A DNA stretch of 64,000 nt, from assembly GCA_000991405.1 (NCBI GenBank), contig LBRL01000001.1, positions 145,547 to 209,546 of the forward strand. The letters run 5' to 3'. This document shows positions 9,194-51,992 of this stretch, one piece after another. This stretch comes from Candidatus Nomurabacteria bacterium GW2011_GWD2_36_14. GTDB taxonomy: Bacteria > Patescibacteriota > Minisyncoccia > Phycocordibacterales > UBA9973. The stretch's first letter is position 1; each line of letters opens with the position of its first letter. Below the pieces are notes generated by a model. That model saw only the letters and a list, made by a program, of their open reading frames with translations, was not told the origin of the DNA and did not search any database. Position numbers and translations under genes: made by a program.

Positions 9194-9424
<231 letters not shown>

Positions 9425-9446: not shown

Positions 9447-10340
9447 TTAATGTGCTTCTTTCAGCTCTCCTTTATTACCATGATCCTTAGCCTCGTCATG
9501 CTCCTCATGATCGGTACTAGAGATAGTATAGTAAACGAGAGTTAAAATAGCGAAAATAAATGCCTGTATTACTCCTACCATTACTTCTAAAAGTAAAAAT
9601 GGTGTAGGTAAGAGATAAGCCATAATAGCACCCATAGAAGCTAGAAGTACTTCTCCAGCAAATACGTTACCGAAGAGACGGAACGAGAGCGAAGCTACTT
9701 TAGCAAATTCACCCACTAATTCTAGTATTCCTACCGCAAACATGATAGGAGCTGTCATTAGAATCATTGGGTCCTTTTTAATCTTGGTAAATATACTCCC
9801 AAGCGCACTTAGATTAACATATTTATTGATAGTTTTCCAGAGACCGATAGAAATAATACCGAAAATATTGGCTCCAATGACGGACATAATAGCTAAGGGT
9901 AAGGTTCCATTAATATCAGCTGTTCCTGAGCGTATAAGAGGAATAAACATTTTTCCATGCTCACCCATTTCTACAAGTCCAAATCCACCTAGAGGGAAAA
10001 TTCCTATCCAGTTATTGAATAGAACGATTATGAATACTGTGAAGACTATGGGGAATGCTTTGTTCGTAATGGCTCGGCTGTTTGTAACTTGGTCGCAGAG
10101 AGACTCTGCTCCTTCTATAACTATTTCAAATATATTCTGTATTCCTCTTGGAACTTTTTTAAGTTTAGATTTTATAACAACTGCCAAGGTGATTAAAATG
10201 AAGACCACTATCCAACTAGTAAAGAGAGCGTTGGTGACAGTAAAATCTCCTATATGGAAGATTGGTTCTGCAAAAAGTGTTGATTCGTGAGTTATTTCGT
10301 TATTTGCACTTAATTCGTTTGTTGGAATTTCTGTAGACAT
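9447..10340 (-). CDS. atpB: Fo ATP synthase subunit a
   Basis: Polytopic membrane protein carrying the conserved R in ...SLSFRLFGNVFAGEVLL. Confidence 0.85.
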   Translation of the reverse strand: MSTEIPTNELSANNEITHESTLFAEPIFHIGDFTVTNALFTSWIVVFILITLAVVIKSKLKKVPRGIQNIFEIVIEGAESLCDQVTNSRAITNKAFPIVFTVFIIVLFNNWIGIFPLGGFGLVEMGEHGKMFIPLIRSGTADINGTLPLAIMSVIGANIFGIISIGLWKTINKYVNLSALGSIFTKIKKDPMILMTAPIMFAVGILELVGEFAKVASLSFRLFGNVFAGEVLLASMGAIMAYLLPTPFLLLEVMVGVIQAFIFAILTLVYYTISSTDHEEHDEAKDHGNKGELKEAH

Positions 10341-10341
10341 A

Positions 10342-10602
10342 TTATTTATTATTTAAATTTTCTTCTTTTTCTATTTTCTTTTTATAAATTTTCATTTCTT
10401 TCCATATTAGATAAATTGTCGAAAGGAAAGCTATACCTATTAAAACTAAAAACAGTAAATTGCCAGTATTATATTTTTGATCTAGATATTTTCCAGCAAA
10501 TGAAGCTATTACAACGGGGGCAGCAATATATGCTGAGACTTTTACAAAGATAATCACCCCATCTCTCCACCAAGGTATTTTGTTGTTTTTGTTATTTTCC
10601 AT
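10342..10602 (-). CDS. Small two-TM protein at the head of the atp operon (AtpZ/AtpI-like)
   Basis: 86 aa with two hydrophobic helices, immediately upstream of atpB. Confidence 0.4.
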   Translation of the reverse strand: MENNKNNKIPWWRDGVIIFVKVSAYIAAPVVIASFAGKYLDQKYNTGNLLFLVLIGIAFLSTIYLIWKEMKIYKKKIEKEENLNNK

Positions 10603-10635
10603 ATTAATAACACCAAGAAAAGGCTAAAAGCCTTG

Positions 10636-10707
10636 TGCGTGTGCTTGGAATCGGACCAAGGACCTCTGTCTTATCAGGACAGCGTTCTACCACTGAACTA
10701 CACACGC
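10636..10707 (-). tRNA. tRNA-Ile (anticodon GAU)
   Basis: Reverse complement folds as a cloverleaf: acceptor GCGTGTG/CACACGC, D-arm GTTC-AGTGGTA-GAAC, anticodon stem CTGTC/GACAG with loop CTGATAA, T-arm CTTGG-TTCGATT-CCAAG, discriminator A. No CCA is encoded. Confidence 0.85.
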
Positions 10708-10834
10708 AATAACACTAACAAAATCTATCCTTAAATATCAAAAGAACAGCCACATTGTATCAAAAAATCCTTTGTTTTGCAAACTAAAATCCCCCACTCT
10801 TGCGAGTAAGGGATTTTAGTTCAGGATAATATAA

Positions 10835-11119
10835 TTATCTGCGGAAACCTCCACCATTTTGTGGACGCTCTTCCATAGGACGAGCTTCGTTCACTGTAAG
10901 ATTTCTTCCTCCGAAATCTTTACCATCAAACATTGAGATTGCTGTAGCTGCATCGGCATCGTTTTCCATTTCTACGAAACCGAAACCTTTTGAGCGACCT
11001 GTCATCTTATCCATAATAATGGTTGCTGAAGCGACAGCTCCTGCAGCACTGAAATGAGCACTAAGCTCATCATTTGTTGTTGAGTAAGGTAACCCACCAA
11101 CATACAACTTTTTTGCCAT
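10835..11119 (-). CDS. RNA-binding protein with a single RRM domain and a Gly/Arg-rich tail
   Basis: MAKKLYVGGLPY (RNP2) ... KGFGFVEM (RNP1). The track ORF starts at 11140, and MAKKLYVGG at 11119 is the more likely start. Confidence 0.8.
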   Translation of the reverse strand: MAKKLYVGGLPYSTTNDELSAHFSAAGAVASATIIMDKMTGRSKGFGFVEMENDADAATAISMFDGKDFGGRNLTVNEARPMEERPQNGGGFRR

Positions 11120-11289
11120 ATATGACAATGTGCTTCTCATAGCGATACTTTCATATCCACTACTTGAAGAAAACTAATTTATAAATGTAATCGCGAAGCT
11201 GATTTCATTTACATACCTCAATGTCCAAAAGAATTTAGCACAACGAAGAATGAAACTAATACCAAAACATAAGCTAACTACTGGGCGGA

Positions 11290-11318
11290 ATTATACCAGA
11301 GATAGGAAAATATAGCAA
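11290..11318 (-). promoter_or_regulatory. Candidate sigma70-type promoter for the RRM gene (-35 TTGCTA, 17-nt spacer, -10 TATAAT)
   Basis: Read on the minus strand: TTGCTAtattttcctatctctggTATAAT. This implies a ~160-nt leader. Confidence 0.4.
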
Positions 11319-11324
11319 CACCCC

Positions 11325-11345
11325 GAGCTAGGCAAGACCTAGCTC
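11325..11345 (-). terminator. Hairpin gagctagg-caaga-cctagctc
   Basis: Contains the 15-mer ctaggcaagacctag. This 15-mer is also the core of the cysS terminator in the opposite orientation and, with 1 mismatch, of the trpB terminator. Confidence 0.4.
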
Positions 11346-11353
11346 AAAGATAG

Positions 11354-11433
11354 CGAAGTAGGATTGTTAAAATTTTTATCCGTGTCGGAGCCCTTTAGGG
11401 TAAAGCGGGAAAAATTTTAATAATCCTACGAAG
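11354..11433 (+). repeat. CGAAG-bracketed covarying hairpin element, copy 1 (invariant apex GTCGGAGCCCTTTAGGGTAAAGC at 11384..11406)
   Basis: CGAAG at 11354-11358 and 11429-11433. The ~23-nt AT-rich arms taggattgttaaaatttttatcc and ggaaaaattttaataatccta pair with one G-T. The element begins 4 nt after the prfA stop. Confidence 0.8.
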
Positions 11434-11437
11434 CGAT

Positions 11438-12409
11438 CTAATCTTCTTCCTCTTCCCCTATTACTCCAGCTGAAAGTGCCTCAATAATTTTAGTTATATT
11501 TCCTTCCATGATTCCGGGGATATTGGACCAAGATTGCTTTATACGGTGGTCGGTGACGCGATCTTGAGGAAAGTTGTATGTGCGGATCTTCTCACTTCTG
11601 TCATTTGTACCTATTTGAGCTTTTCTATCCCCTGAATATTTTTTAGCATCTTCCTCATCTTTAATCATTTGAAGCTTAGAAGTAAGCATCATCATAGCCT
11701 TTTCTCTGTTGCCAAGTTGGGTTCTCTCGGTTGTACAACGTACGTCTTCACCTGTTGGCTTATGTATCAGGCGAACAGCTGTCTCTACTTTGTTCACATT
11801 TTGCCCTCCTGCTCCACCAGAGCGTGAATACTCTATCTCTATATCGGCTGGGTTTATGATTATTGTTATCTTCTTTTTCAAAGGAAGCACAGCCACAGAT
11901 GCAGTAGAAGTATGTATTCTGCCATTCTTCTCTGTGGCGGGGATACGTTGAACTCTATGAACTCCAGTCTCATAGCGTAGAAGTTTGTATACATCTTTAC
12001 CTTTTACTTCTATAGAAGCTTCTTTGTAGCCCCCAGCACTACTTAAGGATTCATTGAGGATTTTCCAGTTCCAATTTTTCTCTTCAGAGAATCTTTCGTA
12101 CATATGTGCCAGCTCCCATGCAAAAAGTGAAGCTTCATCCCCTCCTGCTCCAGCTCTAACTTCTAGAATAATTTCATTGGGGAATTCTTCTTCCTCTTTT
12201 TCACTTTTCATTATTTCTTCTAGTTGTCTTTCTATTGCCTCCTTTTGAAATTTAATATTCTGGATTTCTTCTTCTGCTAAGTCGCGTAGACTTTCATCAG
12301 CTCTCACCATTTCATTTACTTTCTCTTCCTCACTCAAAAGGCGCTCATATTCTAGAGCGAAGTAACTAGTCTTGTGATCTTTCTTAAGTTGTTCTAAGTC
12401 TAATTGCAT
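11438..12409 (-). CDS. prfA: Peptide chain release factor 1
   Basis: [20 protein letters not shown] (GGQ), a PAT tripeptide ([17 protein letters not shown]) diagnostic of RF1, and an RF-1 domain. The track ORF begins with GTG at 12430; ATG at 12409 (MQLDLEQL) is preferred. Confidence 0.85.
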
Positions 12410-12412
12410 GAA

Positions 12413-12421
12413 AATATTATA
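12413..12421 (-). promoter_or_regulatory. Extended -10 box (TGcTATAAT) 6 nt upstream of the prfA ATG
   Basis: On the minus strand the sequence reads gtgTGcTATAATattttcATG. The spacing implies a leaderless or near-leaderless prfA mRNA. Confidence 0.4.
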
Positions 12422-12426
12422 GCACA

Positions 12427-12504
12427 CCACCTCGCCCTTCGGGCACTCCTCCTCCTCCGAAAGGAGGAGAGGAATTCAAAGCCCCCTCCTTGTGGAGGAG
12501 GGGG
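12427..12504. repeat. GC-rich triple stem-loop spacer between rpmE and prfA
   Basis: Three hairpins: gccc-ttcg-gggc, cctcctcctcc-gaaa-ggaggagagg and ccccctcc-ttgtgga-ggaggggg. The 22-mer ccacctcgcccttcgggcactcc is the reverse complement of the one at 4189..4210. Confidence 0.7.
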
Positions 12505-12517
12505 TTGGGGGTGGTGG

Positions 12518-12745
12518 TTACTTTTTTGTTTTTGTTGCCTTTGCACCTGCAGCTGCACGCTTCTTGAAGCGGTCTACACGTCCTGCTGTGTCGAGAACCT
12601 TTTCGTTGCCAGTATAGAAAGGGTGGCATTGACTGCATATTTCAACACTGATTTCGTCCATTGTAGAACCTACAGGAAAAGTTGCCCCGCATGCGCAAGT
12701 TACGACTGAAGCACTGTTATATTTTGGGTGTGTATTCTTTTTCAT
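12518..12745 (-). CDS. rpmE: 50S ribosomal protein L31
   Basis: MKKNTHPKY...CxC...[10 protein letters not shown]: the full-length L31 signature with a zinc ribbon. Confidence 0.9.
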
Positions 12746-12772
12746 ATGTTTTGTGATATTATCATGATTTTG

Positions 12773-14149
12773 TTAGTTTTGCAATGGGTCGATCATAGTT
12801 TTCTGGATATTGGCGGCTTTCTTCATAACGCTGTCTCCATAGAAGCTATTGTTGGGCTTTTTGGTATCACATTTACGTCCTGAATAGTATCTACAAGCAG
12901 CATTTCTCTCACTGGTATAACTTTCCCCTTTTGCCCCTAAGTCTGTCAAATATATAGCCGAGGCTATGAATGCGTCCTTTGCATACCAAGGATCTGGGGT
13001 CTTTATCCCTAGCAAGTCTGCAATACGATTCTTCAACAGTACCCAAGTAGAAGGTATGAATTGTGCTGGCCCCATAGCTCCACCATATCCTGATCCACCA
13101 ATTGGACAAGATACAAGAGTTTTATAAGGGTCGCGTCCAACAGATGTAGTTATATCGAAAAATGGTTTTACATCTCGTGTGGGCTTCATAACATTAGCAA
13201 AAACTTTTCCACTTTTGGAGCTCACCCCTTGTCCTGTATCCATATTGGTAACATAGCAAGATCCTTGGTCAGTACCTAGGTTACTTTCCTGAGTCAGTAT
13301 GGCTAGCAAGAAGGCTGGGCGGATTCCTACTTTCTCTTCAGCAACTTTTGCATACTCTAAAGCTTTTCCAAAAGGAATTGCAGAAGCATCACGAAGATTA
13401 AAAAGTACAGCTAGGATTTCCGATCGTCGTCTAGCCTTATCGTCAAGCAATTTCTGATATTCCTTCTCTTTGTTTTTACTTATAGACAGAAGCTGTTGTT
13501 TATCCTTCTCACTTAGTTCAACTTGCTTCTTTGCATTTTCTAATTGAATTTTTGTATCGACTTCTTGATTCTTTTTTTGCTCGAGGATACTTTTCTCTAT
13601 TTCTGTTTCAGACTTTACGCCCCTTATCTCATCAACTGACTTACTAATACTTTTCTTCAGAGAAGAGAATGTATCAATGTCGCCATATGCTTCAGAAATA
13701 GTACTCTTTGATAGGACCAATGCTAGTACCGACTTATTGTCTATTTCTCTGTCTTTACGAATGAGCTGAGCAAGGGATTCCTTTATGTTATCGATTCTTG
13801 TATTTAAAATATTGATGGTTTTACTTTTCTCTACTATTTCTCCTCCCAACTTTTTGATAACCAAGCCCTTAGCTTGGATGTCGAGCTTCGACTTCTTGAT
13901 CTGAGTCGTAAGTATGGCTATGTCTCGTGAAAGTGAAGTAGACTGACCTTTCTGAGAAGAAAGCTCCTTCTGCTTAGCGGCTATTTCGTTCTCTAGATTG
14001 GCAAGCTCCTTCTCTAATCTGGCTCTATCTGCTTGAGCATTTTCAAGCTCTACGCCTGCATATGCGGGCGTCACTTGGTAAACGAAGTTACCAAAGGTTA
14101 AGCTAAATATAAAAATTAAAGAAAAAAAGTATAGAATGTATCGATTCAT
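12773..14149 (-). CDS. Secreted coiled-coil protein with a C-terminal MltB/Slt35-like lytic transglycosylase domain
   Basis: Signal peptide, then ~230 aa of heptad-rich sequence. The C-terminus carries LAILTQESNLG (catalytic Glu-Ser) and GPAQFIPSTW, which resembles the MltB GPMQFMPSTW motif. Confidence 0.65.
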   Translation of the reverse strand: MNRYILYFFSLIFIFSLTFGNFVYQVTPAYAGVELENAQADRARLEKELANLENEIAAKQKELSSQKGQSTSLSRDIAILTTQIKKSKLDIQAKGLVIKKLGGEIVEKSKTINILNTRIDNIKESLAQLIRKDREIDNKSVLALVLSKSTISEAYGDIDTFSSLKKSISKSVDEIRGVKSETEIEKSILEQKKNQEVDTKIQLENAKKQVELSEKDKQQLLSISKNKEKEYQKLLDDKARRRSEILAVLFNLRDASAIPFGKALEYAKVAEEKVGIRPAFLLAILTQESNLGTDQGSCYVTNMDTGQGVSSKSGKVFANVMKPTRDVKPFFDITTSVGRDPYKTLVSCPIGGSGYGGAMGPAQFIPSTWVLLKNRIADLLGIKTPDPWYAKDAFIASAIYLTDLGAKGESYTSERNAACRYYSGRKCDTKKPNNSFYGDSVMKKAANIQKTMIDPLQN

Positions 14150-41342: not shown

Positions 41343-42548
41343 ATGAAAAACAATATTAAATCATTAAAGAATTTACCAGATGAAAGTGGATATTATGGAA
41401 AATTTGGCGGAAGTTTCATACCTCCACAGCTAGTAGAGCCTCTTAAGGAAATAGAAAGAGAATATATAAAAGCAAAAAATGATCCTGATTTCCAGAAAGA
41501 ATATAGAGACTTACTTACAAATTATGTTGGGCGTCCTTCCCCTCTTTACTTTGCTAAAAATTTATCAACAAAGCTTGGTGGAGCAAAAATATATCTTAAG
41601 CGAGAAGATCTGAATCACACTGGTGCCCATAAAATAAATCATTGTCTTGGAGAAGTATTACTAGCAAAAAGAATGGGTAAGAATAAAGTTTTAGCAGAAA
41701 CTGGAGCAGGTCAGCATGGAGTGGCTCTAGCTACCGCTGCTGCCCTACTTGGTCTTGAGTGCGAAATACATATGGGTTCTATTGATATAGAAAAGGAACA
41801 TCCAAATGTAATCCGTATGAAATTACTAGGTGCTAAAGTTGTAGAAGTTACGTCAGGAGGTAAGTGTCTCAAGGATGCAGTTGATAGCGCTTTTGCAACA
41901 TTTATAAATGAATACAAGACAACATTCTTTGCTATAGGTTCAGTAGTGGGACCTCATCCATATCCTATGATAGTTAGAGATTTTCAATCTATTGTTGGCA
42001 AGGAAGCAAAAGAACAAATATTGAAACAGGAAGATAGATTACCAGATTATGTAATAGGCTGTGTTGGTGGTGGCTCTAATGCTATTGGATTATTTCATGA
42101 ATTTCTTGATGATGAAGTTAAACTTGTAGGTGTTGAACCAGCAGGTATCGGATCAGGAGTTGGTGAACATGCAGCTACTATTACTTATGGAACAGAGGGA
42201 GTCATACATGGTATGAAGACGATTGTATTACAAGATAAAAATGGAGAACCCAACAGTGTTCACTCCATTGCATCTGGATTAGACTATCCAGGAGTTGGCC
42301 CTATTCATGCTTATCTGAAAGATATTGGAAGAGTAGAATATACTAGAGCTTCTGATGATGAGACAATTAAGGCATTCTTAGAATTGTCTAAAGTTGAGGG
42401 AATTATTCCAGCTTTAGAAAGTGCTCATGCCATAGCTTATGTAATGAATCTAGCTCCAACTCTTAGTAAAGACAAAATTATTATCGTGAATCTTTCAGGT
42501 CGTGGAGATAAAGATATTGATTATGTAGCTAAGTTGTTAAAAATTTAA
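41343..42548 (+). CDS. trpB: Tryptophan synthase beta chain (canonical TrpB1 type), orphan
   Basis: Near-collinear with E. coli TrpB: [66 protein letters not shown]. No trpA or other trp genes are nearby. Confidence 0.9.
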
Positions 42549-42552
42549 TCCC

Positions 42553-42591
42553 AAAAATCTTCCCCTAGGCAAGGCCTAGGGGAAGATTTTT
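42553..42591. terminator. Bidirectional hairpin aaaaatcttcccctagg-caagg-cctaggggaagattttt
   Basis: 17-bp stem between convergent trpB and the histidine kinase gene. Confidence 0.75.
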
Positions 42592-42607
42592 AATTTATAA
42601 TTCCTAA

Positions 42608-44248
42608 TTATTTAACCGCTCCAAGTTCCATGAAGAAGGTCGAGCCTTTGCCCATGCCTTCGGACTCAACGTATACACGGCCTCCATGAGCTTCTGAGAT
42701 CTCCTTGGTGAGGTACAAGCCCAAGCCCGTGCCGGAAGTGTTCATACGAGCACCTTCACCACGAGCAAACTTCTGGAACAGTGTAGCCTTGATCTCTGGA
42801 GTCATACCCATACCTGTATCCTTTACGGAGAACAAAACCTTGTCCCCCACTTTTTCGACTTTCACATTTATCTCCCCTGTCTTTGTGTATTTGATGGAGT
42901 TATCGACAAAGTTTATAACAACTTGGCGAATCTTGTCCTTGTCACCATTAACCATACAATCCTTCACACCTTCTGACAAGAAGTTCATTTTGAGACCCTT
43001 GCCTTCTGCAACAATGGAAAGTTCTTTGGTCACAGACTCTGCAACTTCATTCATATCAAATGGAGCCATATCATACTTCATGCCTCCCTGCTCAATCTTA
43101 GACACGTTCAGTAAGTCTTCCACAATTTTAGCCAAGTTCTGACTGGATTCATATATACGAGAGATAGCATCCTTGGCTTCCTTATTCACTTCACCATAGT
43201 CTCCATCCACAACCATGGAAGCATAACCCTTTATGGCTGTCAGTGGGCTTCGTAGCTGATGTGAAGCCAGCGACACGAATTCACTCTTCAATTTATCAAG
43301 TCCTTTCAACTTTTCATTGGCATTTTCTAGGTCGCTATTTGATTGCTCTAATTTCAATCTTAATACTTCTAATCTTTCACGTTGCCTTATTTCTTTTATA
43401 ACACTACGTATTAGATTTATACCAAAAACAAGGAACAAAAAGAATACACACCCTCTAAATATAATCATTAATAATGTTTCGGAAAATATAACTTCAACGA
43501 GTAGAACAACAGAAAGTATAAATACTAAAACTGCCGTTGCTGCAACTTTTATATTAAATAAATGTCGTTTTAAAATAGCCACAGCTGTAAATATTACAAA
43601 AGGAAATGTAAAAAGTGCTCCAAGGGGTATATATCGTGTATTATCAGACATTACAGGTAAAATAAGATTAAATAAAATTATTGATGTAAACATTATTAAT
43701 ACACCTACAACAATTAAATTTATTTGGGAACGTAGTTCATCTTTAGCTAAATTTAATTTTCTTAAAATTACCACAAATCCACTAATAACCAATGAGAGGG
43801 CTACAAAAATAAATATAAATATTCCTGAAGCTGGAACAGGATGTGACACAACATCCCCTGGAACTCTGGTAATTGAAGAAAATACATAAGGGGTTAATGT
43901 TAAAATAGCTGTAGCAAAAGCAATCGGAATGACCCCAATCTTAAACCATTTAGGAAATATTATGACTTCTTGAGGAAATACAAACATTAATGTAAAAAAA
44001 GACAAAGATTGAAGAACTGCAAAAAATATTACAAATCGAATAGTCCACAAAATTAATAAATCATTATTGATATTATAATTTAAATAATTAGTTACACCCC
44101 ATGCCAATGTAACCATCGAAAAAATAAAAAATATTTTATTCGTTAGACTTTTTCTATTACTAAAATAAACAACAAAACCAAGTAAGCCTGTTCCTGCAAC
44201 AGAAACACCTACCGTTAATAAATCTAAATTTATGCCTGATTGAAACAT
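42608..44248 (-). CDS. Sensor histidine kinase with a ~8-TM N-terminal domain (orphan; no response regulator adjacent)
   Basis: H-box ASHQLRSPLTAIKGY, plus N, G1 (DTGMGM) and G2 (GTGLGLYL) boxes. Its start codon abuts the stop of the upstream gene. Confidence 0.85.
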   Translation of the reverse strand: MFQSGINLDLLTVGVSVAGTGLLGFVVYFSNRKSLTNKIFFIFSMVTLAWGVTNYLNYNINNDLLILWTIRFVIFFAVLQSLSFFTLMFVFPQEVIIFPKWFKIGVIPIAFATAILTLTPYVFSSITRVPGDVVSHPVPASGIFIFIFVALSLVISGFVVILRKLNLAKDELRSQINLIVVGVLIMFTSIILFNLILPVMSDNTRYIPLGALFTFPFVIFTAVAILKRHLFNIKVAATAVLVFILSVVLLVEVIFSETLLMIIFRGCVFFLFLVFGINLIRSVIKEIRQRERLEVLRLKLEQSNSDLENANEKLKGLDKLKSEFVSLASHQLRSPLTAIKGYASMVVDGDYGEVNKEAKDAISRIYESSQNLAKIVEDLLNVSKIEQGGMKYDMAPFDMNEVAESVTKELSIVAEGKGLKMNFLSEGVKDCMVNGDKDKIRQVVINFVDNSIKYTKTGEINVKVEKVGDKVLFSVKDTGMGMTPEIKATLFQKFARGEGARMNTSGTGLGLYLTKEISEAHGGRVYVESEGMGKGSTFFMELGAVK

Positions 44249-45280
44249 TTATTTTTTAATTACACTATTAACTAATAATCTTGGACTATGATGTGGGTCT
44301 TTATTATTATAACCTATTCTAAATAAAAATTCTGGATAAAACTCAGTATTTAAGACTTTTTGTAATTCTTTATTCGATTCACTATAAACACTCACTGACC
44401 CCCATGGAGAAGTTTTTATGTCTTGAGATATAGCATTAAGAGCTATATTTTGATACATTCTTCCAATTATTAATTTATCTTTCTTAGTATTATTTTTTGA
44501 AGTTAATACAATAATTTCTGGAGTATACTTTGTGAATAGAGCAGTATTTTGTTTTTCACTAAACTTATCCATATTAAATAACTTAATGAGATTAGGTACT
44601 ATTAAGGATAATATACCAGGAATTTGCATACCAAAAGCAGGAATACCAACATAAGATTCGGTAAAATTATTCTTTACATGAGTTGATAATTCCCTTCTAA
44701 ACAAATAAGAACTCATTAATTGTATAGAAGCATAATTGGCAATCTTACCAATATCAGCAATAGTTTGAGAATCTTGTATAAGTACTACTTTATGATCTGT
44801 GGTTGAAAATTTTTGAATTTTTTCTAGAAATTCATCTGGGAGATTTCTCTGTTCATATTTACCACGATTAACAATACGTCTTTTAATTTGGTGTATTAAG
44901 TGACTAGAATCTATACTTTTCGAGTGGTCTTGTGTAAATTGTAATATTGCACATAGTTCTATTTGTGGATTTTCTTCATAAACAACACTAACTGTATATC
45001 CAAAATAATCAGCCGTAACAACAATATTTTCTACTGTACATCCTATACTCACATATGATAAGTCATCGTTAGGATCACCAACTGGTAGTACTCGTACTTT
45101 TGATTTAAAAACATTTATAGATAATTTCTCCACGTCAATTTGGAATTCCCATGGTTGAGAATTATGACTCGAAGGGGCAAGAATACCAAACCTTAAGAAA
45201 AAAAGGAGTTTATCGTAATCCGATTTCTGTTCTTCAAAATCAGTGACAGAAACTTTCCAAGCATCGTAGTTGTTTGCCAT
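44249..45280 (-). CDS. Two-lobed nitroreductase-superfamily (FMN-binding fold) protein
   Basis: N-terminal APSSHNSQPWEF NTR motif. At 343 aa it is about twice the size of a single NTR, and the C-terminal half is also NTR-like (IGRMYQNIALNA...FRIGY). Confidence 0.55.
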   Translation of the reverse strand: MANNYDAWKVSVTDFEEQKSDYDKLLFFLRFGILAPSSHNSQPWEFQIDVEKLSINVFKSKVRVLPVGDPNDDLSYVSIGCTVENIVVTADYFGYTVSVVYEENPQIELCAILQFTQDHSKSIDSSHLIHQIKRRIVNRGKYEQRNLPDEFLEKIQKFSTTDHKVVLIQDSQTIADIGKIANYASIQLMSSYLFRRELSTHVKNNFTESYVGIPAFGMQIPGILSLIVPNLIKLFNMDKFSEKQNTALFTKYTPEIIVLTSKNNTKKDKLIIGRMYQNIALNAISQDIKTSPWGSVSVYSESNKELQKVLNTEFYPEFLFRIGYNNKDPHHSPRLLVNSVIKK

Positions 45281-45325
45281 ACAGTAGATATTATAGCATA
45301 AAATATAAACACATACGACAAAACA

Positions 45326-46843
45326 TTATTTTACCCATTGTTGCTTTCCGTTACCGCTAAAATATTTATGATGATGGTATGGCCAGCCAATAATTTTAGG
45401 ATAAACTTTTTTCCCCTCTAGAGAATATAGATAGGCATATTCAGAATTTCTCGAACGTAATTCTTCTACAATATAATCGGCAATTTGTTTTTTTAGCATA
45501 GGTGTCATAAAAACATTCTTTTTTAACTCAATATTTATCTCAAGGACTGAATTTAATGATTTATTTTCTTTCTTTAGAATAGTAGCTTTGCCTGTAATAA
45601 ATTTTGATAATTCTTTTCTATCAAGTGCTGTTCTAATTTCTTCTGAATAAATATTTGCTCCACGAAATACAATAACAAAATCACTTCGCGTAAATAGATA
45701 AACTATAGGCAAATTAAATACTTTGTTTGAAATACCAACTTTTTTCGCTTCGGTCAAAATATCTACTCCTACTGTCTTGCATTTTTCTAACAATTCTTTA
45801 AATGATATAACCCCACCTAAATCTGAAAAAGCATAGCGAACAAGGGGAACAGATGAACTATAGCTTGTAACAACAACTTCCCCGTTAACTTCTTCAAAAT
45901 ATGTTATATGTGGATAATATTGAGCTACTGTCGGCATAGAAATTGCATTTGGAAATAATACTTCAAATATTTTTTTATTTTTATTTGAAAGAGATCGAAT
46001 TAGTGCAGTAAGAGCGGTCTCGTGAGCAATAGTACCTTGTTCCACTGTACCATAAATATTTACAATATCAGTATATTTATTTCTAATTCCGGTCTTTTTG
46101 ATTAAATAGTTACGAAAGTTTTCTGAATACCCTTCCGCTGCTGTTAAAATGCGCATATTATATTCCTCCCAATTGATACCATGCTTTGGTCCATTATCAA
46201 TAATATCTTTTATGAATGGAGGGTAACCCATAATAACAGTATTATCATAAAATGGCATGAATTTTTTACATGAAGTTAAAAATAATTCCTTATTGGTACC
46301 AACTGGGATTATTGTTAATTTGTATCCTTTCTGTGAAAGTTTATTTAAATTTTTATAGGTAAAGACACCACCAATCCAAATACCTAAACCAAAACCTAAA
46401 ACACATAAGGTGGATTTATTCTTAGATAGACCAAACTGATTTACAAAAAATAACTCTAACGCATATTCATAATACGAATCATGCACCTCAGAACGAGGAA
46501 AATAAAAAGATTCTCCAGTAGATCCAGATGTCGCAGAAATTGTTGTTGCTTCATTTAAGGCATTCTTTGGAAAAAGTTGTTCATATGGTAGTTTACGTAA
46601 GTAATTATCTCTTCTAATAAGAGGTAAATTTTTAAAATCTTTAATATTATTTATAGGACTTTTTACATTATTCTTAATAAGAAAATGTGCATAAGCTGGT
46701 ACAGATTGTTTAGTAAAACGAAATATATCAAGAGCATTCTTTTCTCCTTGCAATTCAAGCCTTTGGGAATCAACCAACCTTAAATAATCAATTTCTTTCT
46801 TAATATTATCTGTATAGTGAAATGATAGAACCTTTTTCTTCAT
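45326..46843 (-). CDS. PaaK/CapK/F390-synthetase-like adenylate-forming ligase (ANL superfamily)
   Basis: TISATSGSTGESFYFP (Ser/Thr/Gly-rich AMP motif), GFGLGIWIGG, IYGTVEQG, 505 aa. Confidence 0.65.
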   Translation of the reverse strand: MKKKVLSFHYTDNIKKEIDYLRLVDSQRLELQGEKNALDIFRFTKQSVPAYAHFLIKNNVKSPINNIKDFKNLPLIRRDNYLRKLPYEQLFPKNALNEATTISATSGSTGESFYFPRSEVHDSYYEYALELFFVNQFGLSKNKSTLCVLGFGLGIWIGGVFTYKNLNKLSQKGYKLTIIPVGTNKELFLTSCKKFMPFYDNTVIMGYPPFIKDIIDNGPKHGINWEEYNMRILTAAEGYSENFRNYLIKKTGIRNKYTDIVNIYGTVEQGTIAHETALTALIRSLSNKNKKIFEVLFPNAISMPTVAQYYPHITYFEEVNGEVVVTSYSSSVPLVRYAFSDLGGVISFKELLEKCKTVGVDILTEAKKVGISNKVFNLPIVYLFTRSDFVIVFRGANIYSEEIRTALDRKELSKFITGKATILKKENKSLNSVLEINIELKKNVFMTPMLKKQIADYIVEELRSRNSEYAYLYSLEGKKVYPKIIGWPYHHHKYFSGNGKQQWVK

Positions 46844-46857
46844 AAGAATTATAATTA

Positions 46858-47928
46858 CTATTTTTTATTGATAATCTTTTTAGCTAATTTGTCGGCGATT
46901 CTTTCGGGAGATATATTTTCCTTATCACTATTTTTAATTATCTCACTCATTATTTTTTGTATCTTCTTAACGTTATTTTTTATTCGAGTGTTGTTGATAC
47001 TTGAGTTTTTATATTCATCCACAACACTTATAAGTCCACCCGCATTGACTATATAGTCAGGTCCGTAGAATATACCCTTATCATACAATTTATCGGCTAT
47101 ATCTGCACTCTCTAGCTGATTGTTAGCAGAACCAATTATTATTTTACACTTGAAATCTTTAATGCTCTTTTTATTTAAAGTGTAATACAGAGCACATGGC
47201 ATATAGATATCAACTTTTTGTTTATGAATATTATCAACGTCTATGATCTTTACTTTAGGAAAAAGCTTTTTTATATAAGCTAATCTTTCCTTATTTGTAT
47301 CTGAAATATAAATACTTTTAGCCTCTTTGTATACAATCTTTAGAAATTCAGAGCCCACCTTACCAACTCCTTGAATAGCAAAGGTTCTGCCTTTCATATT
47401 CTTGGTTCCAAATATCTTTTGACAAGTTGTCTCAATAGCAAAGAATAGACCAAGGGCTGTGTACTTTTCTGGATTAGAAAAGTAGCCAACTAGATACTTA
47501 GTATCTTTCTTCATTGAATCTAGGTCAGCAACAGTCAAGCCAACATCTGTCCCAGTGATAAACTGCCCCTTAAGATTGTTAAGCAGAGTAGCGTATGACT
47601 TAAACAAAGCCTCTCTAGAGAACTTCCCCTTAGGCTTTATTAGAACTGCCTTTGCTCCCCCATAAGGAAGCCCAGCTAAGGCACTTTTATAAGACATTAG
47701 TTTGGAAAGCTTCAAGGCGTCCTTTAATGCCTCTTTATCTGAAGGATATTTCAACAATCTTGTTGCTCCAAATGAAGGTAGTGAGCCATTCTTTCGATGA
47801 ATGGCAATGTATCCATGTAATTTTGTTGCTGAATTATTCAACTGTAATACCAGAAAATGATTGTCAAATTCTGGTATTTGCTTTAAAGTTTTTTTAGTTA
47901 ACAACTTACTAGATTTAATTTTATTCAT
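46858..47928 (-). CDS. Leucine/phenylalanine-type amino-acid dehydrogenase (Glu/Leu/Phe/Val DH family)
   Basis: Collinear with Bacillus LeuDH: PYGGAKAVL, AIQGVGKVG, MPCALYYTLN, IIGSANNQL, YGPDYIVNAGGLISVVDE. Confidence 0.8.
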   Translation of the reverse strand: MNKIKSSKLLTKKTLKQIPEFDNHFLVLQLNNSATKLHGYIAIHRKNGSLPSFGATRLLKYPSDKEALKDALKLSKLMSYKSALAGLPYGGAKAVLIKPKGKFSREALFKSYATLLNNLKGQFITGTDVGLTVADLDSMKKDTKYLVGYFSNPEKYTALGLFFAIETTCQKIFGTKNMKGRTFAIQGVGKVGSEFLKIVYKEAKSIYISDTNKERLAYIKKLFPKVKIIDVDNIHKQKVDIYMPCALYYTLNKKSIKDFKCKIIIGSANNQLESADIADKLYDKGIFYGPDYIVNAGGLISVVDEYKNSSINNTRIKNNVKKIQKIMSEIIKNSDKENISPERIADKLAKKIINKK

Positions 47929-48989
47929 ACAGAAAGAGTGTAATGTTTAGTTATGTATAACTTTTTATTGTTTTTAAGAATTTCTTTCACTGCGTATGTA
48001 ACGATAACTCCACCCAAAATTGCTGCACTTCCCAACTGAGACCAAGACACCAATTCTTTGTTAATAACTTTTTTAACTGACTTTATCATATTTGGATCAA
48101 CCTTATCTACTCCTCCGACAATATCGTTTACAATGAGACCACCAGCTTCTTCACGTGTTAACTTATTCTTCATAATATTATTCCAATACGATATATCTTT
48201 ATTGAAAATTTTATTATAACCCAAGTCATATCTCTCAATGTGAAGAACTACTCCATCCCCGTTGTCAGTTATCATCAATACAGGAATTTTATATTTTAAA
48301 GCTAATCTTCGAACTTCAATTTTAACTGGGAAATCATCAATCTCTTCAACAATACAATTCAGCTTTTTATTCTTTAATAAAAGTTCTAAATTTTTAGCAT
48401 TTACACCCTTTTTCATTAAAGTAACTTCCGCAAAAGGATTATCTTCATAAATGCGACGAGATGCAATGACGGTTTTATTTAAACCTATTTGATGAACACC
48501 TGCCAGAATTCTGTTTAAATTTGTTGTGTCTAAATTATCGAAATCAGCAATAGTTATAGAGTTCGATATGCCCGCTTGGGTGAGCACAAAGGCAATGTTA
48601 CTACCTACGCTCATGCCGAAGACCCCAATTTTAAAATTTGATAGCTTCTTCTGTTCCTCTTCTGTTATTAAGTCTCTGTTTCTATTGGTTTTAAGGGTTA
48701 AATAATCATTTTTTTTAACTGACTTAATCAGAGTATAATTCCAAGGATAATAAATGTGTATGAAATTATTCATATTTTCTTTTACAAAATCCAAGAAAGC
48801 TTTATCTTTATATACCTTCTTTTTATCTTCTCCTATGAACTTGTGATTCCTGATAAAAAATAATTCCTTCAACTGGTGCGAAAAAGCATCCACGTATGTT
48901 ACCTGTGAATTCTTCTTGAGAAGCTCTTTAACTTTTTTATAATCTTTAATTAATATCGGCTTATCTCCCAGGCTATCGCTTGTTTTCAT
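47925..48989 (-). CDS. E1-like ThiF/MoeB-family adenylyltransferase-fold protein with a ~120-aa N-terminal extension
   Basis: Rossmann GVFGMSVGS and DFDNLDTTNLNRI (compare DxDxVxxSNLNRQ). No C-terminal rhodanese or Cys-rich zinc motif is evident. It overlaps the LeuDH-like gene by 4 nt. Confidence 0.6.
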   Translation of the reverse strand: MKTSDSLGDKPILIKDYKKVKELLKKNSQVTYVDAFSHQLKELFFIRNHKFIGEDKKKVYKDKAFLDFVKENMNNFIHIYYPWNYTLIKSVKKNDYLTLKTNRNRDLITEEEQKKLSNFKIGVFGMSVGSNIAFVLTQAGISNSITIADFDNLDTTNLNRILAGVHQIGLNKTVIASRRIYEDNPFAEVTLMKKGVNAKNLELLLKNKKLNCIVEEIDDFPVKIEVRRLALKYKIPVLMITDNGDGVVLHIERYDLGYNKIFNKDISYWNNIMKNKLTREEAGGLIVNDIVGGVDKVDPNMIKSVKKVINKELVSWSQLGSAAILGGVIVTYAVKEILKNNKKLYITKHYTLSV

Positions 48990-49039
48990 ATATAAATAAA
49001 TTATACCATAAAGAATATTTTGTGTAAAAATATAGCGTA

Positions 49040-50969: not shown

Positions 50970-51992
50970 TTAGGCTAAATACTTCTCGATAAGTTCGTTG
51001 GCTTCTATCGGATTGGATTTACATTCTAGAAGTGCAGTAAGCATGAGTGGGGCAACAATAGTAGCATCGGACTCCACGACGAACATTGGAGTATCTTTGG
51101 TAAGCTTGTCCCAAGTAATCTTCTCATTTGGAGTGGCACCTGAGTACGAACCATAAGAAGTAGTAGAGTCTGAGATCTGACAGAAGTAGGCCCAAGGCTT
51201 TACTTCTTTCTGTAAGTCGTACTTTATTGAAGGAACTACGCAAATAGGAAAGTCTCCTGAGATACCTCCTCCAATCTGAAAGAATCCTACCCCTTCACCT
51301 TTCGAAAGTTCCTGATACTGATCGTAGAATGCCACCATATATTCTATACCCGACTTTACTATGTTAGGACTACATTCCTCGCTCTTCACATATGAAGCAA
51401 AAATGTTGCCAAAAGTTGAATCTTCGTGTCCTGGGACAACTATAGGAATGTTGTTCTCAGCAGCCGCTAGGAGCCAGCACTCTTCAGCCTTGCCTTCGTG
51501 CAATTCTTTGTCAATTCCTTTTATCAAATCATAGAAATACTCATGCCAGAATTTACGAGTGCCATTGGCAGTGTATTCCTTCCAGATAGGTACAATCTTC
51601 TTCTCGACAACACGGAAGGCTTCGTCCTCGGGGATACTTGTATCGGTCACACGACGCATACGATCCTGTAGTATCTTGGTATCATCTTCTTTTGTAAAGT
51701 AACGATAGTCAGGGAAATCTTTGTAACTATGGTGAGCAACGAGACGGAAAAGTGATTCCTCCAAGTTGGCCCCTGTCACAGACATACCAGATATAAGTCC
51801 AGCACGAATAGCTGGAGCTAAGGTAATGCCCATTTGAGCCGAAGACATAGCACCTCCGACAGCCCAGAACATTTTGCCTCCTTTCTCAATATGTCGCCAA
51901 TAAGCAATAGTGGCATTCTTGGTAGCACGAGAATTGAAGTTCTTATAATTCTTTAAAATAAATTCTAATGTAGGTAAATTTGTATTTTGCAT
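50970..51992 (-). CDS. Deoxyhypusine-synthase-like protein (bacterial DHS-like homospermidine synthase candidate)
   Basis: DHS fold motifs: AVGGAMSSAQMG, VTGANLEESL, QIGGGISGD, SYSGATPNEKITWDKL (compare human SGARPDEAVSWGKI). Confidence 0.7.
   Translation of the reverse strand: MQNTNLPTLEFILKNYKNFNSRATKNATIAYWRHIEKGGKMFWAVGGAMSSAQMGITLAPAIRAGLISGMSVTGANLEESLFRLVAHHSYKDFPDYRYFTKEDDTKILQDRMRRVTDTSIPEDEAFRVVEKKIVPIWKEYTANGTRKFWHEYFYDLIKGIDKELHEGKAEECWLLAAAENNIPIVVPGHEDSTFGNIFASYVKSEECSPNIVKSGIEYMVAFYDQYQELSKGEGVGFFQIGGGISGDFPICVVPSIKYDLQKEVKPWAYFCQISDSTTSYGSYSGATPNEKITWDKLTKDTPMFVVESDATIVAPLMLTALLECKSNPIEANELIEKYLA

Follow-up and report, generated by a model that had tools for sequence, protein, structure and literature searches.

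Five tightly packed genes were found on the minus strand between 42608 and 48989 of the 64-kb window (i.e., the whole stretch of DNA analysed), together with a promoter-like site at one end and a hairpin at the other. In order of transcription, the features were:

49000..49028, minus strand: promoter-like site (consensus match only)
47925..48989, minus strand: ThiF/E1-like adenylating enzyme, 354 aa (ORF and domain calls)
46858..47928, minus strand: NAD(P)-dependent amino-acid dehydrogenase of the Leu/Phe/Trp-type ELFV group, 356 aa (PF02812 and PF00208)
45326..46843, minus strand: distant PaaK-like adenylating ligase of the ANL superfamily, 505 aa (AF2 and Foldseek, PDB profile search)
44249..45280, minus strand: nitroreductase-fold FMN protein (FDO) of the Acg/FDO group, 343 aa (Acg-family model)
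42608..44248, minus strand: membrane histidine kinase, 546 aa (HisKA_7TM, HisKA and HATPase_c)
42551..42593, bidirectional: intrinsic-terminator-like hairpin, stem of 18-20 bp

The five gene calls of an earlier note on this DNA were correct in coordinates and strand. Of the junctions it described, the 4-nt overlap of ThiF and dehydrogenase genes and the 0-nt junction of FDO and kinase were recovered, while the gap between dehydrogenase and ligase was 14 nt rather than 15. Ligase and FDO are separated by 45 nt, a gap absent from that note. The hairpin lies directly 3' of the kinase stop codon and closes the transcription unit.

Upstream on the same strand, and separated from the ThiF gene by a 50-nt gap after AguA, are genes for an arginine decarboxylase-like protein, a deoxyhypusine/homospermidine-synthase-like (DHS-like) protein (score 100.9 bits, cut-off 450), AguB and AguA. 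This physical fusion to polyamine synthesis had been offered as a clue to function. The five genes would then extend the polyamine operon and modify putrescine, homospermidine or agmatine, for instance through N-acylation by the ligase; their position directly downstream, with no terminator between, agrees with this, as does another locus (L001) where AguB and AguA also adjoin the module. However, in a comparison of 47 related loci whose flanks reached 5 kb or more on both sides ('fully flanked'), polyamine genes adjoined the module in only one, and L002 and most other loci had unrelated neighbours. G-C content was also lower in the module (0.29-0.33 for the four enzyme genes, 0.35 for the kinase) than in the polyamine genes (0.37-0.42). 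Furthermore, the AguA/ThiF gap contains a strong promoter-like site (TTTACA, a 17-nt spacer and a TG-extended TATAAT), 11 nt upstream of the ThiF ATG, before which no Shine-Dalgarno sequence was visible. With 11 of 12 positions matching, this was one of the two top-scoring sites between 41 and 55 kb; the other lacks a TG ahead of its second hexamer. The call is a consensus match only, and promoter-like sites overall were not enriched over shuffles. The polyamine link is lineage-local, because it is confined to 1/47 loci and a promoter-like site precedes the module itself; a role in polyamine modification is very unlikely.

The five genes are, by contrast, bound to each other. ThiF was present in 45, FDO in 41 and the kinase in 44 of the 47 loci; the ligase lay within 6 kb of ThiF in 45, mostly directly adjacent, and a homologous kinase was no more than 6 kb from the ligase in 44. 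All five genes occurred in 27 loci. This co-conservation, which the earlier note had set as a check, is far above chance, and it persists while gene order is permuted across lineages (at least three orders). Gene fusions were also observed: ThiF-FDO in five related CPR loci, in the same order as the mycobacterial fusion TrzS and with one scoring 342 bits on the Rv1355c model; FDO-alpha/beta-hydrolase in four loci; ANL-ThiF in L038 and P0250; ThiF-ANL in P0332; ELFV-ANL in P0282; and ELFV-ANL-ThiF in P0310. Natural fusions of this kind tie the enzymes into one pathway; co-conservation, permuted order and fusions together link all four enzymes, and linkage of the kinase is near-constant. An accessory MhpC/BphD/HsaD-like alpha/beta-hydrolase was found in 14/47 loci, and in the high-GC locus L077 an M20 peptidase-family protein is encoded directly upstream of the ligase. 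The M20 family includes N-acyl-amino-acid hydrolases.

The ThiF protein has the E1/ThiF fold and N-terminal extension previously described, but since PF00899 begins at residue 103 the extension is approximately 100 aa long, rather than 120. The protein matched the Rv1355c family model NF005901 over positions 23-325 (219.5 bits, cut-off 476), while ThiF/MoeB models gave 68 bits or less, such that it is not an ordinary MoeB/ThiF. A chance juxtaposition of housekeeping genes (a MoeB/ThiF sulfur-carrier activator, a catabolic LeuDH, PaaK, an Acg-like stress protein and an unrelated kinase) was considered, as every family has housekeeping members. It is contradicted by co-conservation in 47 loci and by the fusions, as well as by these scores; a CxxC zinc site is missing from the ThiF protein and no candidate for ThiS/MoaD was found, making coincidence barely credible.

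In direct comparison, the ThiF half resembled a Rhodococcus protein named by PGAP as Rv1355c-family (E = 9e-44). A tblastn search of plasmids with ThiF returned 15 hits, all actinobacterial; nine were annotated as Rv1355c-family and four as Streptomyces/Kitasatospora ThiF-family, while two were without annotation. In the single Streptomyces neighbourhood inspected, a GNAT gene followed directly downstream of the ThiF-family gene. The adenylation motifs were intact in both the ThiF and ANL proteins. The ATP-site Asp of ThiF, D218, belongs to the set of residues with at least 90% conservation across 69 aligned sequences; in the alignment it falls on the Rhodococcus Asp that corresponds to TrzS D217. 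The ThiF protein is predicted to be an ATP-dependent cyclodehydratase of OxzB/TyzB/TrzS type.

The N-terminal extension had been likened to the peptide-recognition domains of MccB, PaaA and TOMM proteins. This comparison was unsupported: the extension matched the Rv1355c model from residue 16 onward, almost from its own first residues, and the Rv1355c family acts on small molecules; a Pfam search of the extension returned no family, RRE included. The best solved E1-like structures, among them MccB and PaaA, aligned over approximately 200-250 of the 354 residues, and neither of these two aligned better than MoeB. Hence, a RiPP/TOMM-like system, in which the extension would read a precursor peptide and the nitroreductase-fold protein would act as a McbC/SagB-type dehydrogenase, is most improbable. 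As the earlier note had recognised, this is not a canonical TOMM cluster, since YcaO was not found, and the TIGR03603, TIGR03604, TIGR03605 and ocin-ThiF models gave no match. Nor was there a precursor or ThiS-like candidate; the gaps of 50, 14, 45 and 0 nt hold no free small ORF, and no ORF shorter than 160 aa in the 64 kb ends in GG.

The FDO matched the Acg-family model NF047509 along its full length (residues 29-341 against 3-319 of 319; 172.7 bits, cut-off 199), bearing out the two-lobed nitroreductase fold that had been proposed. It also matched the C-terminal half of NF005901 (372-665 of 722; 64.2 bits, E = 7e-18) and of the Rhodococcus Rv1355c-family protein (BLASTP, E = 8e-8), although the Acg/Rv3131 model scored higher. 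Conserved positions comprised the motif A35-P-S37..N40..Q42-P-W44, as well as R135, R139, R321 and R334. Thus, the protein is Acg-like, a possibility raised in the earlier note, but both known and new fusions link it directly to the E1-like enzyme. Because ThiF and FDO fall below their curated cut-offs (219.5 against 476 and 172.7 against 199), they are relatives of their best models rather than equivalogs. FDO is predicted to be a flavin-dependent desaturase.

By homology, ThiF corresponds to the N-terminal half and FDO to the C-terminal half of the Rv1355c/TrzS family, i.e., the ThiF-FDO oxazolone synthetases (OxzB, TyzB plus TyzC, and TrzS), which cyclise N-acyl amino acids using ATP and then desaturate them (PMC10404671, PMC12856293, bioRxiv 10.1101/2020.06.11.147165). 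The first of these enzymes was OxzB (bioRxiv 10.1101/2020.06.11.147165). TrzS is the name given to Rv1355c, for which biochemical work demonstrated cyclisation (with ATP) and desaturation (with O2 and FMN) of N-acyl-Trp (PMC12856293), and TyzB and TyzC are its unfused equivalents (PMC10404671). Where the earlier note recognised no pathway, therefore, the ThiF and nitroreductase pair is a published unit, although the match to a known pathway is partial. In TrzAS of M. tuberculosis and M. smegmatis, which produces N-acyl-tryptazolone, the window proteins align to the N- and C-terminal halves of the TrzS fusion, N-terminal extension included, and the ATP-site Asp is conserved; however, the window enzyme is split into two genes, scores below the equivalog cut-off, and belongs to a CPR bacterium rather than an actinobacterium. 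TyzACB of M. tuberculosis, which produces C12-tyrazolone (PMC10404671), has unfused ThiF and FDO genes in one operon, as does the window, and in both the FDO is of monomer size (~340-370 aa) with two nitroreductase lobes, but in the window two other genes intervene between ThiF and FDO. OxzAB of Pseudoalteromonas rubra shares the two catalytic domains and the proposed logic, in which ATP-dependent cyclisation of an N-acyl amino acid precedes its flavin-dependent oxidation. OxzA draws acyl-CoA from the fatty-acid pool; 56 oxzB homologues were reported, all from Proteobacteria, and the text does not mention a ligase, dehydrogenase, kinase or CPR bacteria with oxzB (bioRxiv 10.1101/2020.06.11.147165). 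The module differs from these pathways in its acyl donor system: it lacks TrzA and TyzA, a ligase and a dehydrogenase or aminotransferase replace OxzA/TyzA/TrzA, and a 7TM kinase is almost always adjacent.

The ligase had no match in Pfam and matched PaaK models weakly (32 bits, cut-offs 646-700). The PaaK-like fold previously assigned was nevertheless borne out by an AF2 model (pLDDT 88), for which Foldseek identified PaaK1 (2y27, E = 4e-22) as well as BT_0428, ClxA, HCL and GH3.11 JAR1, and by a search of PDB with the A1 profile, which identified PaaK2 (49.7 bits). The window ligase shares with PaaK-type enzymes the P-loop, hinge Arg/Asp and C-terminal Lys of the adenylation motifs, and its invariant residues were T105-S-G-S108, E237/E241, Y337/D341, R386/D388 and K500; but it has only 14-17% identity to PaaK and related small ANL enzymes, and is approximately 70 aa longer. 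Its closest solved relatives (PaaK, BT_0428, HCL) are CoA ligases. ClxA, however, makes an amide or ester without CoA, and JAR1 was solved together with JA-Ile, its acyl-amino-acid conjugate product. Neither the 64-kb window nor the 82 CPR-type loci used for comparison (L001-L082) yielded a TrzA-like acyltransferase, and no module span contained an acyltransferase, so that the ligase alone remains to carry out acylation. It is proposed that the ligase makes the N-acyl amino acid that ThiF would cyclise.

The description of the dehydrogenase as Leu/Phe-type was sound. Both PF02812 and PF00208 were present, and the best PDB matches were LeuDH (6acf, 212 bits), TrpDH (5b37, 195 bits) and PheDH (126 bits); the NCBIfam model for the ScyB Trp-DH gave 265 bits (cut-off 600). 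Catalytic residues K81, K93 and D128 (LeuDH K68, K80 and D115) and G126 (LeuDH A113) were invariant in 46 module homologues, while the specificity pocket (F53, G126, L299, V302) matched no characterised enzyme. The dehydrogenase is missing from approximately 40% of loci, being present in 29/47; other lineages have a class I/II aminotransferase instead (8/47), so that one or the other occurs in 37 fully flanked loci. This exchange implies a need for interconversion of amino acid and 2-oxo acid, the reaction that the dehydrogenase catalyses in one direction or the other.

The most likely interpretation, held with moderate confidence, is that this self-contained CPR module produces, and probably also detects, a heterocycle of N-acyl-oxazolone (azlactone) type derived from an amino acid. 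The dehydrogenase, or elsewhere the aminotransferase, would supply substrate by interconverting amino acid and 2-oxo acid. The ligase would adenylate a carboxylic acid, possibly that same 2-oxo acid, and attach it to an amino acid through the amino group of the latter, so taking over the role of the acyl-CoA-dependent OxzA/TyzA/TrzA acyltransferase. ThiF would then adenylate the amino-acid carboxylate, leading to closure of the oxazolone ring, and the FMN-dependent FDO would desaturate the C-alpha/C-beta bond. The oxazolone FDOs known so far use O2, and many CPR bacteria inhabit anoxic settings, which counts against this scheme. The same enzymes might instead make or degrade another amino-acid-derived compound. 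One such scheme, suggested by the nearest solved relatives of the ligase, has this enzyme as a true CoA ligase whose substrate is an aryl-, branched- or 2-oxo acid from the dehydrogenase, with ThiF and FDO acting on a different carboxylate and forming a lactam, dehydro-amino acid, pyrazinone-like or cofactor-like product. Scores under the equivalog cut-offs, the best match of FDO to a family without an assigned reaction, and the hydrolase, which hints at additional steps, all favour such chemistry. Against it, no acyltransferase was found that could use the acyl-CoA, the ANL-ThiF fusions argue that the ligase product is the ThiF substrate, and biochemical work on ThiF-FDO pairs or fusions has characterised no function other than oxazolone formation (PMC10404671, PMC12856293). 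Different chemistry was rated unlikely, though far from negligible.

The kinase was confirmed as a multi-TM protein whose start abuts the FDO stop codon. Hydropathy indicated 8-9 TM helices with short loops (~8 had been counted before), and the domains were PF16927 HisKA_7TM (15-233), PF00512 (321-388) and PF02518 (435-542), with H330 in the HisKA domain and without any extracytoplasmic or PAS/HAMP domain. Three high-GC, non-CPR loci (L052, L077 and L078) are missing the kinase, showing that kinase and enzymes are separable. No receiver domain or response regulator was found in the 64-kb window; in 22/47 loci elsewhere the partner regulator is a stand-alone receiver. LuxM/LuxN and CqsA/CqsS are pairs of autoinducer synthase and membrane receptor-kinase, and in these, as proposed for the window, genes for a lipophilic molecule adjoin a multi-TM histidine kinase that lacks an extracytoplasmic domain. 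This is analogy rather than homology; the window enzymes have no sequence relationship to the LuxM and CqsA synthases, and the regulator of the module, where present, differs in standing alone. The hydrophobic oxazolone-type product would be a candidate ligand of the adjoining 7TM kinase, which may act as its receptor; alternatively, the kinase may gate the pathway. These results agree with the earlier suggestion of a small molecule derived from an amino acid, which the kinase might read out. The module is widespread in the ultra-small CPR/Patescibacteria bacteria and is a conserved unit of them; since it combines an enzyme pair related to those behind the N-acyl-oxazolone lipids of M. tuberculosis with a different upstream enzyme and an almost always adjacent sensor kinase, it may be a small-molecule signalling system.

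The module comprised five consecutive genes on the minus strand, listed here in transcription order and followed by three neighbouring features.

47925–48989, minus strand: ThiF-like (E1-like) gene, 354 aa, first
46858–47928, minus strand: ELFV amino-acid dehydrogenase gene, 356 aa, second
45326–46843, minus strand: PaaK-like ANL ligase gene, 505 aa, third
44249–45280, minus strand: nitroreductase-fold flavoprotein (FDO) gene, 343 aa, fourth
42608–44248, minus strand: histidine kinase (HK) gene, 546 aa, fifth
42551–42593: hairpin where the kinase and TrpB-like genes converge; near-perfect, GC-rich stem of 18–20 bp with A/T runs alongside
41343–42548, plus strand: TrpB-like PLP-dependent protein (PF00291), 401 aa, convergent with the kinase
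50970–51992, minus strand: deoxyhypusine/homospermidine-synthase-like (DHS-like) gene

ThiF and ELFV overlapped by 4 nt, the next two junctions were gaps of 14 and 45 nt, and FDO and the kinase abutted (0 nt); the earlier note had described the five genes accurately, but had one gap size wrong and left the 45-nt gap unmentioned. The strong hairpin after the kinase gene looks like a bidirectional intrinsic terminator. At gathering thresholds, the only known RNAs or riboswitches found in the window by Rfam were two tRNAs, both far from the module. The four enzyme genes had a G-C content of 0.29–0.33, against 0.37–0.42 in the adjacent polyamine genes and 0.366 for the whole window; the kinase gene (0.35 overall) consisted of a membrane half at 0.28 and a catalytic half at 0.43. 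Horizontal acquisition could account for the low G-C of the module, as could the composition of sequence that codes for membrane proteins. The TrpB-like gene was rejected as a member of the module because a homologue occurred nearby in only one of 82 related loci; its closeness is probably a coincidence, even though tryptazolones are linked to tryptophan.

Homologues of ThiF and of the ligase were abundant in metagenomes, where any names they carried were Paceibacteria, Parcubacteria, Magasanikbacteria or Patescibacteria; at E ≤ 1e-30, 439 of 1.84 billion representatives (50%-identity clusters) belonged to the ligase family. When GTDB species genomes were scanned with the ligase alignment, 80 loci came up, nearly all from MAGs of Patescibacteria (CPR), with hosts among the Paceibacteria, Magasanik-, Nealson-, Kaiser-, Adler-, Lipton-, Nomura-, Roizman- and Doudnabacteria and the Saccharimonadia. 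Contigs L001 and L002 carried the identical five genes in identical order; AguB and AguA also lay upstream in L001, while the neighbours in L002 were quite different (Pirin, Nramp). OZ246401.1 (L054) and other MAG records labelled 'uncultured Gammaproteobacteria' combined low G-C content with the CPR-type module architecture, one being a complete 938-kb chromosome; these labels look wrong.

Co-conservation was evaluated in 47 related loci in which the ligase was flanked by at least 5 kb to either side, by labelling ORFs with profiles made from the window proteins and counting those within 6 kb of the ligase. ThiF was present in 45/47 loci, the kinase in 44/47 and FDO in 41/47. The ELFV dehydrogenase occurred in 29/47 and a class I/II aminotransferase in 8/47, one or the other being found in 37/47; a stand-alone receiver was observed in 22/47 and an alpha/beta-hydrolase in 14/47. 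All five genes were found together in 27/47 loci, and the neighbourhood check proposed in the earlier note thereby came out positive. The five genes are almost certainly one conserved functional unit.

Gene order varied by lineage (ThiF-ELFV-ANL-FDO-HK, ELFV-ANL-ThiF-FDO-HK or FDO-ELFV-ANL-ThiF-hydrolase-HK), and in the Saccharimonadia a divergent aminotransferase and receiver were followed by ANL-ThiF-FDO-HK; junctions were tight in every order. The Saccharimonadia-type loci (L024, L031, L037, L042, L057, L062–L065, L073, L075, L081 and L082) were without ELFV; their class I/II aminotransferase (~374 aa) and stand-alone receiver (~121 aa) were divergent and just upstream of the ligase, and their kinase was longer (711–775 aa) and retained HisKA_7TM. 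A frequent sixth gene, missing from the window, encoded an alpha/beta-hydrolase of ~295 aa (Abhydrolase_1, with weak HsaD/BphD/PcaD-like matches), placed between ThiF/FDO and the kinase (L009, L010, L029, L032, L036, L045, L046, L049, L050, L053, L054, L061, L066 and L072); ring opening, deacylation and product turnover are possibilities for its function. Three genuinely high-GC, non-CPR loci had ANL-ThiF-FDO without the kinase: L077 (Hyphomicrobiaceae MAG, G-C 0.62, positions 7357–13450), L078 (Actinomycetota MAG, 0.64) and L052 (Polyangiaceae MAG, 0.62). In L077, genes of the M48 and M20 peptidase families stood before the trio, the M20 gene adjoining the ligase, and an ArsR-type regulator came after it; the M20 family includes N-acyl-amino-acid hydrolases.

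On the same strand, 5' of the module, lay arginine-decarboxylase-like, DHS-like, AguB and AguA genes, with DnaJ and DnaK beyond; a modified polyamine was among the products that the earlier note suggested from this adjacency. A link to polyamine synthesis is not supported: polyamine genes were near the module in only 1/47 loci. The arginine-decarboxylase gene was preceded by a terminator and a promoter-like site; no terminator was found between AguA and ThiF, and read-through co-transcription from the polyamine genes into the module is possible. The 50-nt AguA/ThiF gap (minus strand, within 48989–49039) held a promoter-like TTTACA, 17 nt, TG-n-TATAAT, one of the two top-scoring promoter-like sites in the 14-kb region; of these two, it alone had a TG extension. 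Its -10 element ended 11 nt before the ThiF ATG, no Shine-Dalgarno being visible, and the mRNA from which ThiF is translated may be leaderless or nearly so. Given the promoter-like site, the 3' hairpin, the lower G-C of the enzyme genes and the rarity of the arrangement, the polyamine juxtaposition is local and lies outside the logic of the module. The DHS-like gene reached only 100.9 of the 450 bits required by a 'homospermidine biosynthesis protein' model and scored similarly on deoxyhypusine synthase models; the end-product of its operon is putatively homospermidine or another polyamine.

ThiF and FDO each pointed to the same known protein. The Pfam ThiF domain began at residue 103, leaving an N-terminal extension of ~100 aa, and the top NCBIfam model for the protein was the Rv1355c family (NF005901; 219.5 bits, E = 8e-65), with residues 16–342 matching profile positions 23–325 of 722. 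FDO aligned over the full length of the Acg family FMN-binding oxidoreductase model (172.7 bits; cut-off 199) and also matched NF005901 at positions 372–665 (64.2 bits, E = 7e-18). Because both match one Rv1355c model, the first and fourth genes correspond to halves of a known fusion protein; the equivalog cut-off of 476 bits, which applies to a single ThiF-FDO polypeptide, was reached neither by the split genes nor by the CPR ThiF-FDO fusion in L029 (342.3 bits). Fusions of this kind (743–763 aa) were present in five loci, that in L029 also scoring above the Acg-family cut-off. When compared with a PGAP-named Rv1355c-family protein on a Rhodococcus qingshengii plasmid (L083), ThiF showed 34% identity over residues 79–335 (BLASTP, E = 9e-44) and FDO 21% over residues 35–315 (E = 8e-8). 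D218 of ThiF aligned with the Asp in 'ECDSF' of the Rhodococcus protein; along with the nucleotide-loop glycines, D151, N157-L-N-R160 and K172, it was at least 90% conserved in 69 aligned ThiF sequences. The top structural match of the ThiF model was AclA (9egb). Two features of oxazolone clusters were present, namely a ThiF-like protein that is related to the OxzB/TyzB/TrzS cyclases and keeps the ATP-site Asp (D218), and an FDO-type flavoprotein in the same operon. Judging from sequence, ThiF and FDO are very probably homologues of the two oxazolone-synthetase halves, and a combination of genes that had at first matched no recognised pathway can be related to the published chemistry of Rv1355c/TrzS.

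That chemistry is known from three systems that produce N-acyl-oxazolones; the product type that defines such clusters is a 4-alkylidene/arylidene-oxazol-5-one. Acid and alcohols destroy oxazolones (PMC12856293). The founding oxazolone synthetase was OxzB of Pseudoalteromonas rubra (bioRxiv 10.1101/2020.06.11.147165). The acyltransferase TyzA makes N-acyl-Tyr, which ThiF-like TyzB cyclises with ATP, and the nitroreductase-superfamily member TyzC, a flavin-dependent oxidase, carries out an O2-dependent desaturation to yield C12-tyrazolone (PMC10404671). Rv1355c (TrzS), a ThiF-FDO fusion, performs both steps on N-acyl-Trp made by TrzA; the D217A mutation abolished cyclisation, so that the N-acyl amino acid built up, and R540A impaired desaturation, with a build-up of the saturated oxazolone (PMC12856293).

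Other readings of the E1-like protein and its neighbours were considered and rejected. A MoeB/ThiF sulfur-carrier E1 was discounted because ThiF, MoeB and TcdA models scored at most 67.7 bits (NCBIfam cut-offs 152–650), the protein had one Cys and no CxxC zinc site, and no ORF of less than 160 aa ending in GG, as expected of a ThiS/MoaD-like partner, was found in the 64-kb window. An anti-phage E1/Cap2-type system was dismissed since PADLOC gave generic E1-E2 matches of at most 40 bits and none for the other enzymes. A RiPP peptide substrate was rejected, all small ORFs (at least 20 aa, 42.5–49.1 kb) overlapping large genes; the AguA/ThiF gap (50 nt) and the junctions inside the module (14, 45 and 0 nt) held no free short ORF, and the lack of an ORF ending in GG in the window also told against a peptide. 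Among markers of TOMM/azole RiPP clusters (McbBCD, SagBCD), there was no YcaO, SagB-type (TIGR03605) or ocin-ThiF-type match in NCBIfam or Pfam. The earlier note, having seen no YcaO and hence no canonical TOMM cluster, and neither a ThiS/MoaD-like nor a short precursor ORF, was right on both counts; so too was its view of the second gene as a bona fide Leu/Phe-type dehydrogenase.

This dehydrogenase had both ELFV domains, similarity to solved LeuDH, TrpDH and PheDH (212, 195 and 126 bits) and the catalytic Lys/Lys/Asp, which was invariant in 46 module homologues. Its predicted pocket is distinctive and conserved across these homologues: LeuDH A113 was replaced by Gly (G126; 46/46), L40 by Phe (F53; 37/46) and V291 by Leu (L299; 43/46), with V294 remaining Val (V302; 46/46). 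PheDH too has Gly at the A113 position, which is at most a pointer to a larger side chain.

No Pfam family was assigned to the ligase, and PaaK models (TIGR02155/NF041878) gave 32 bits against cut-offs of 646–700. Its AF2 model (pLDDT 88) matched PaaK1 and PaaK2 (E = 4e-22, 16% identity), as well as BT_0428, ClxA and 2-hydroxyisobutyryl-CoA ligase, with GH3.11/JAR1 at lower rank; the ligase-family profile scored 49.7 bits against PaaK2. What the ligase has in common with PaaK is limited to fold and motifs. The P-loop (T105-S-G-S108), E237, E241, Y337, D341, hinge residues R386 and D388 and the C-terminal K500 were invariant in 30 homologues, which argues that adenylation chemistry is intact. 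The kinase contained HisKA_7TM, HisKA and HATPase_c domains (PF16927, 30.5 bits against a gathering score of 28.6; PF00512, 60.7 against 26.9; PF02518, 94.5 against 26.4), with the phospho-acceptor H330 within SHQLRSP; it had 8–9 hydrophobic helices joined by short loops, and no extracytoplasmic, PAS or HAMP domain. A receiver-domain profile identified no response regulator in the 64-kb window.

Further gene fusions connected the enzymes. FDO was fused at its C-terminus to the hydrolase in four loci (L013, L026, L069 and L073), while the ligase family included ANL-ThiF (P0250, also L038), ThiF-ANL (P0332) and ELFV-ANL (P0282) fusions, and a triple fusion, ELFV-ANL-ThiF (P0310, 1242 aa). Each module enzyme was therefore fused to another somewhere, and the order of the triple fusion, with FDO after ThiF, agreed with the commonest gene order. 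Fusions on metagenomic contigs are occasionally assembly or frameshift artefacts; here there were several independent kinds. Together, the fusions and the matching order are strong evidence for one predicted pathway in which ELFV, ANL, ThiF and FDO act in that order.

The module departs from OxzAB, TyzACB and TrzAS in its acylation system. In all three the partner gene encodes an acyl-CoA-dependent N-acyltransferase, in place of which the module has a PaaK-like ligase and a dehydrogenase. No OxzA/TyzA/TrzA-type amino-acid N-acyltransferase was adjacent, and no acyltransferase domain was found in any module gene or inside any module; a TrzA-like enzyme was found neither in the window nor in the 82 CPR-type loci (L001–L082; phmmer, E ≤ 1), in a search that used one query sequence and that very remote homologues could escape. 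The module would seem to work like an oxazolone cluster minus one defining feature. Lacking that acyltransferase, and scoring below the equivalog cut-offs, it was not placed in TrzAS, TyzACB or OxzAB; it was considered a variant of these clusters, on account of the different acylation system, the added amino acid/2-oxo acid step, the conserved sensor kinase and a new, very large host group. No ligase, amino-acid dehydrogenase, histidine kinase or CPR bacterium is mentioned in an oxazolone context in PMC10404671, PMC12856293 or bioRxiv 10.1101/2020.06.11.147165, and no description of the module was found among the papers retrieved on oxazolones in CPR, on ThiF/nitroreductase/PaaK/kinase sets and on CPR BGC surveys.

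In the proposed mechanism, an amino acid and its 2-oxo acid would be interconverted by the dehydrogenase or, in other lineages, by the aminotransferase. The ligase would then adenylate a carboxylic acid and couple it to the alpha-amine of an amino acid, and this CoA-independent reaction would yield an N-acyl amino acid. Judging by the ELFV-ANL fusions, the likeliest ligase substrate is the 2-oxo acid or an amino acid derived from it. On indirect grounds, the acylation step is ascribed to the ligase: there is no other candidate enzyme, and ANL is fused to ThiF in several lineages. Further indirect support for amide formation comes from the structural neighbour JAR1/GH3.11, solved in complex with the acyl-amino-acid conjugate JA-Ile, from ClxA, the closoxazole (benzoxazole) ligase, which also couples its substrate without CoA, and from the M20-family gene adjoining the ligase in L077; the nearest solved relatives, however, are CoA ligases, and the chance that the ligase forms an amide is put at slightly under even. 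By homology to the characterised enzymes, ThiF would adenylate the carboxylate, the amide oxygen closing an oxazol-5-one ring, and FDO would desaturate C-alpha/C-beta; where present, the hydrolase may open the ring or take off the acyl group. An oxazolone-type heterocycle is, by a modest degree, the favoured product.

Finally, the 7TM kinase could sense a hydrophobic, hydrolytically labile product in the membrane, or, prompted by some other membrane cue, could control the pathway. Oxazolone synthetases were discovered in 2020–2021 and the role of their products is described as unknown; the authors concerned note that oxazolones are labile and resemble signalling molecules (PMC12856293; bioRxiv 10.1101/2020.06.11.147165). 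The near-constant kinase linkage is new circumstantial support for signalling and says nothing on ligand binding; that the kinase senses the product is considered rather doubtful. At its broadest, the module might be a CPR-wide chemical signalling system, in which an oxazolone-type product is made from scavenged amino or 2-oxo acids without acyl-CoA, and the 7TM kinase is its receptor; the product would be labile and membrane-partitioning, the arrangement would be analogous to LuxM/LuxN or CqsA/CqsS, and the kinase would signal to stand-alone receivers. This must be regarded as speculative and on balance unlikely.

The module places the ThiF-FDO unit in a new biosynthetic setting, where an ATP-dependent ligase and an amino-acid dehydrogenase replace an acyl-CoA acyltransferase. 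The natural ELFV-ANL-ThiF and ThiF-FDO fusions are ready-made constructs for biochemistry, and a route to azlactones that needs no CoA would be of interest for biocatalysis. Patescibacteria have genomes of ~1 Mb and very few biosynthetic pathways, so that a conserved 6.4-kb module combining a small molecule with a sensor is unexpected; it could be relevant to communication of these episymbionts with one another or with their hosts. Linkage to a sensor kinase in 44/47 loci offers a concrete, testable hypothesis for the role of oxazolone-type molecules. If the signalling reading were true, Patescibacteria would gain their first assigned autoinducer-like circuit and oxazolones a first defined biological role.
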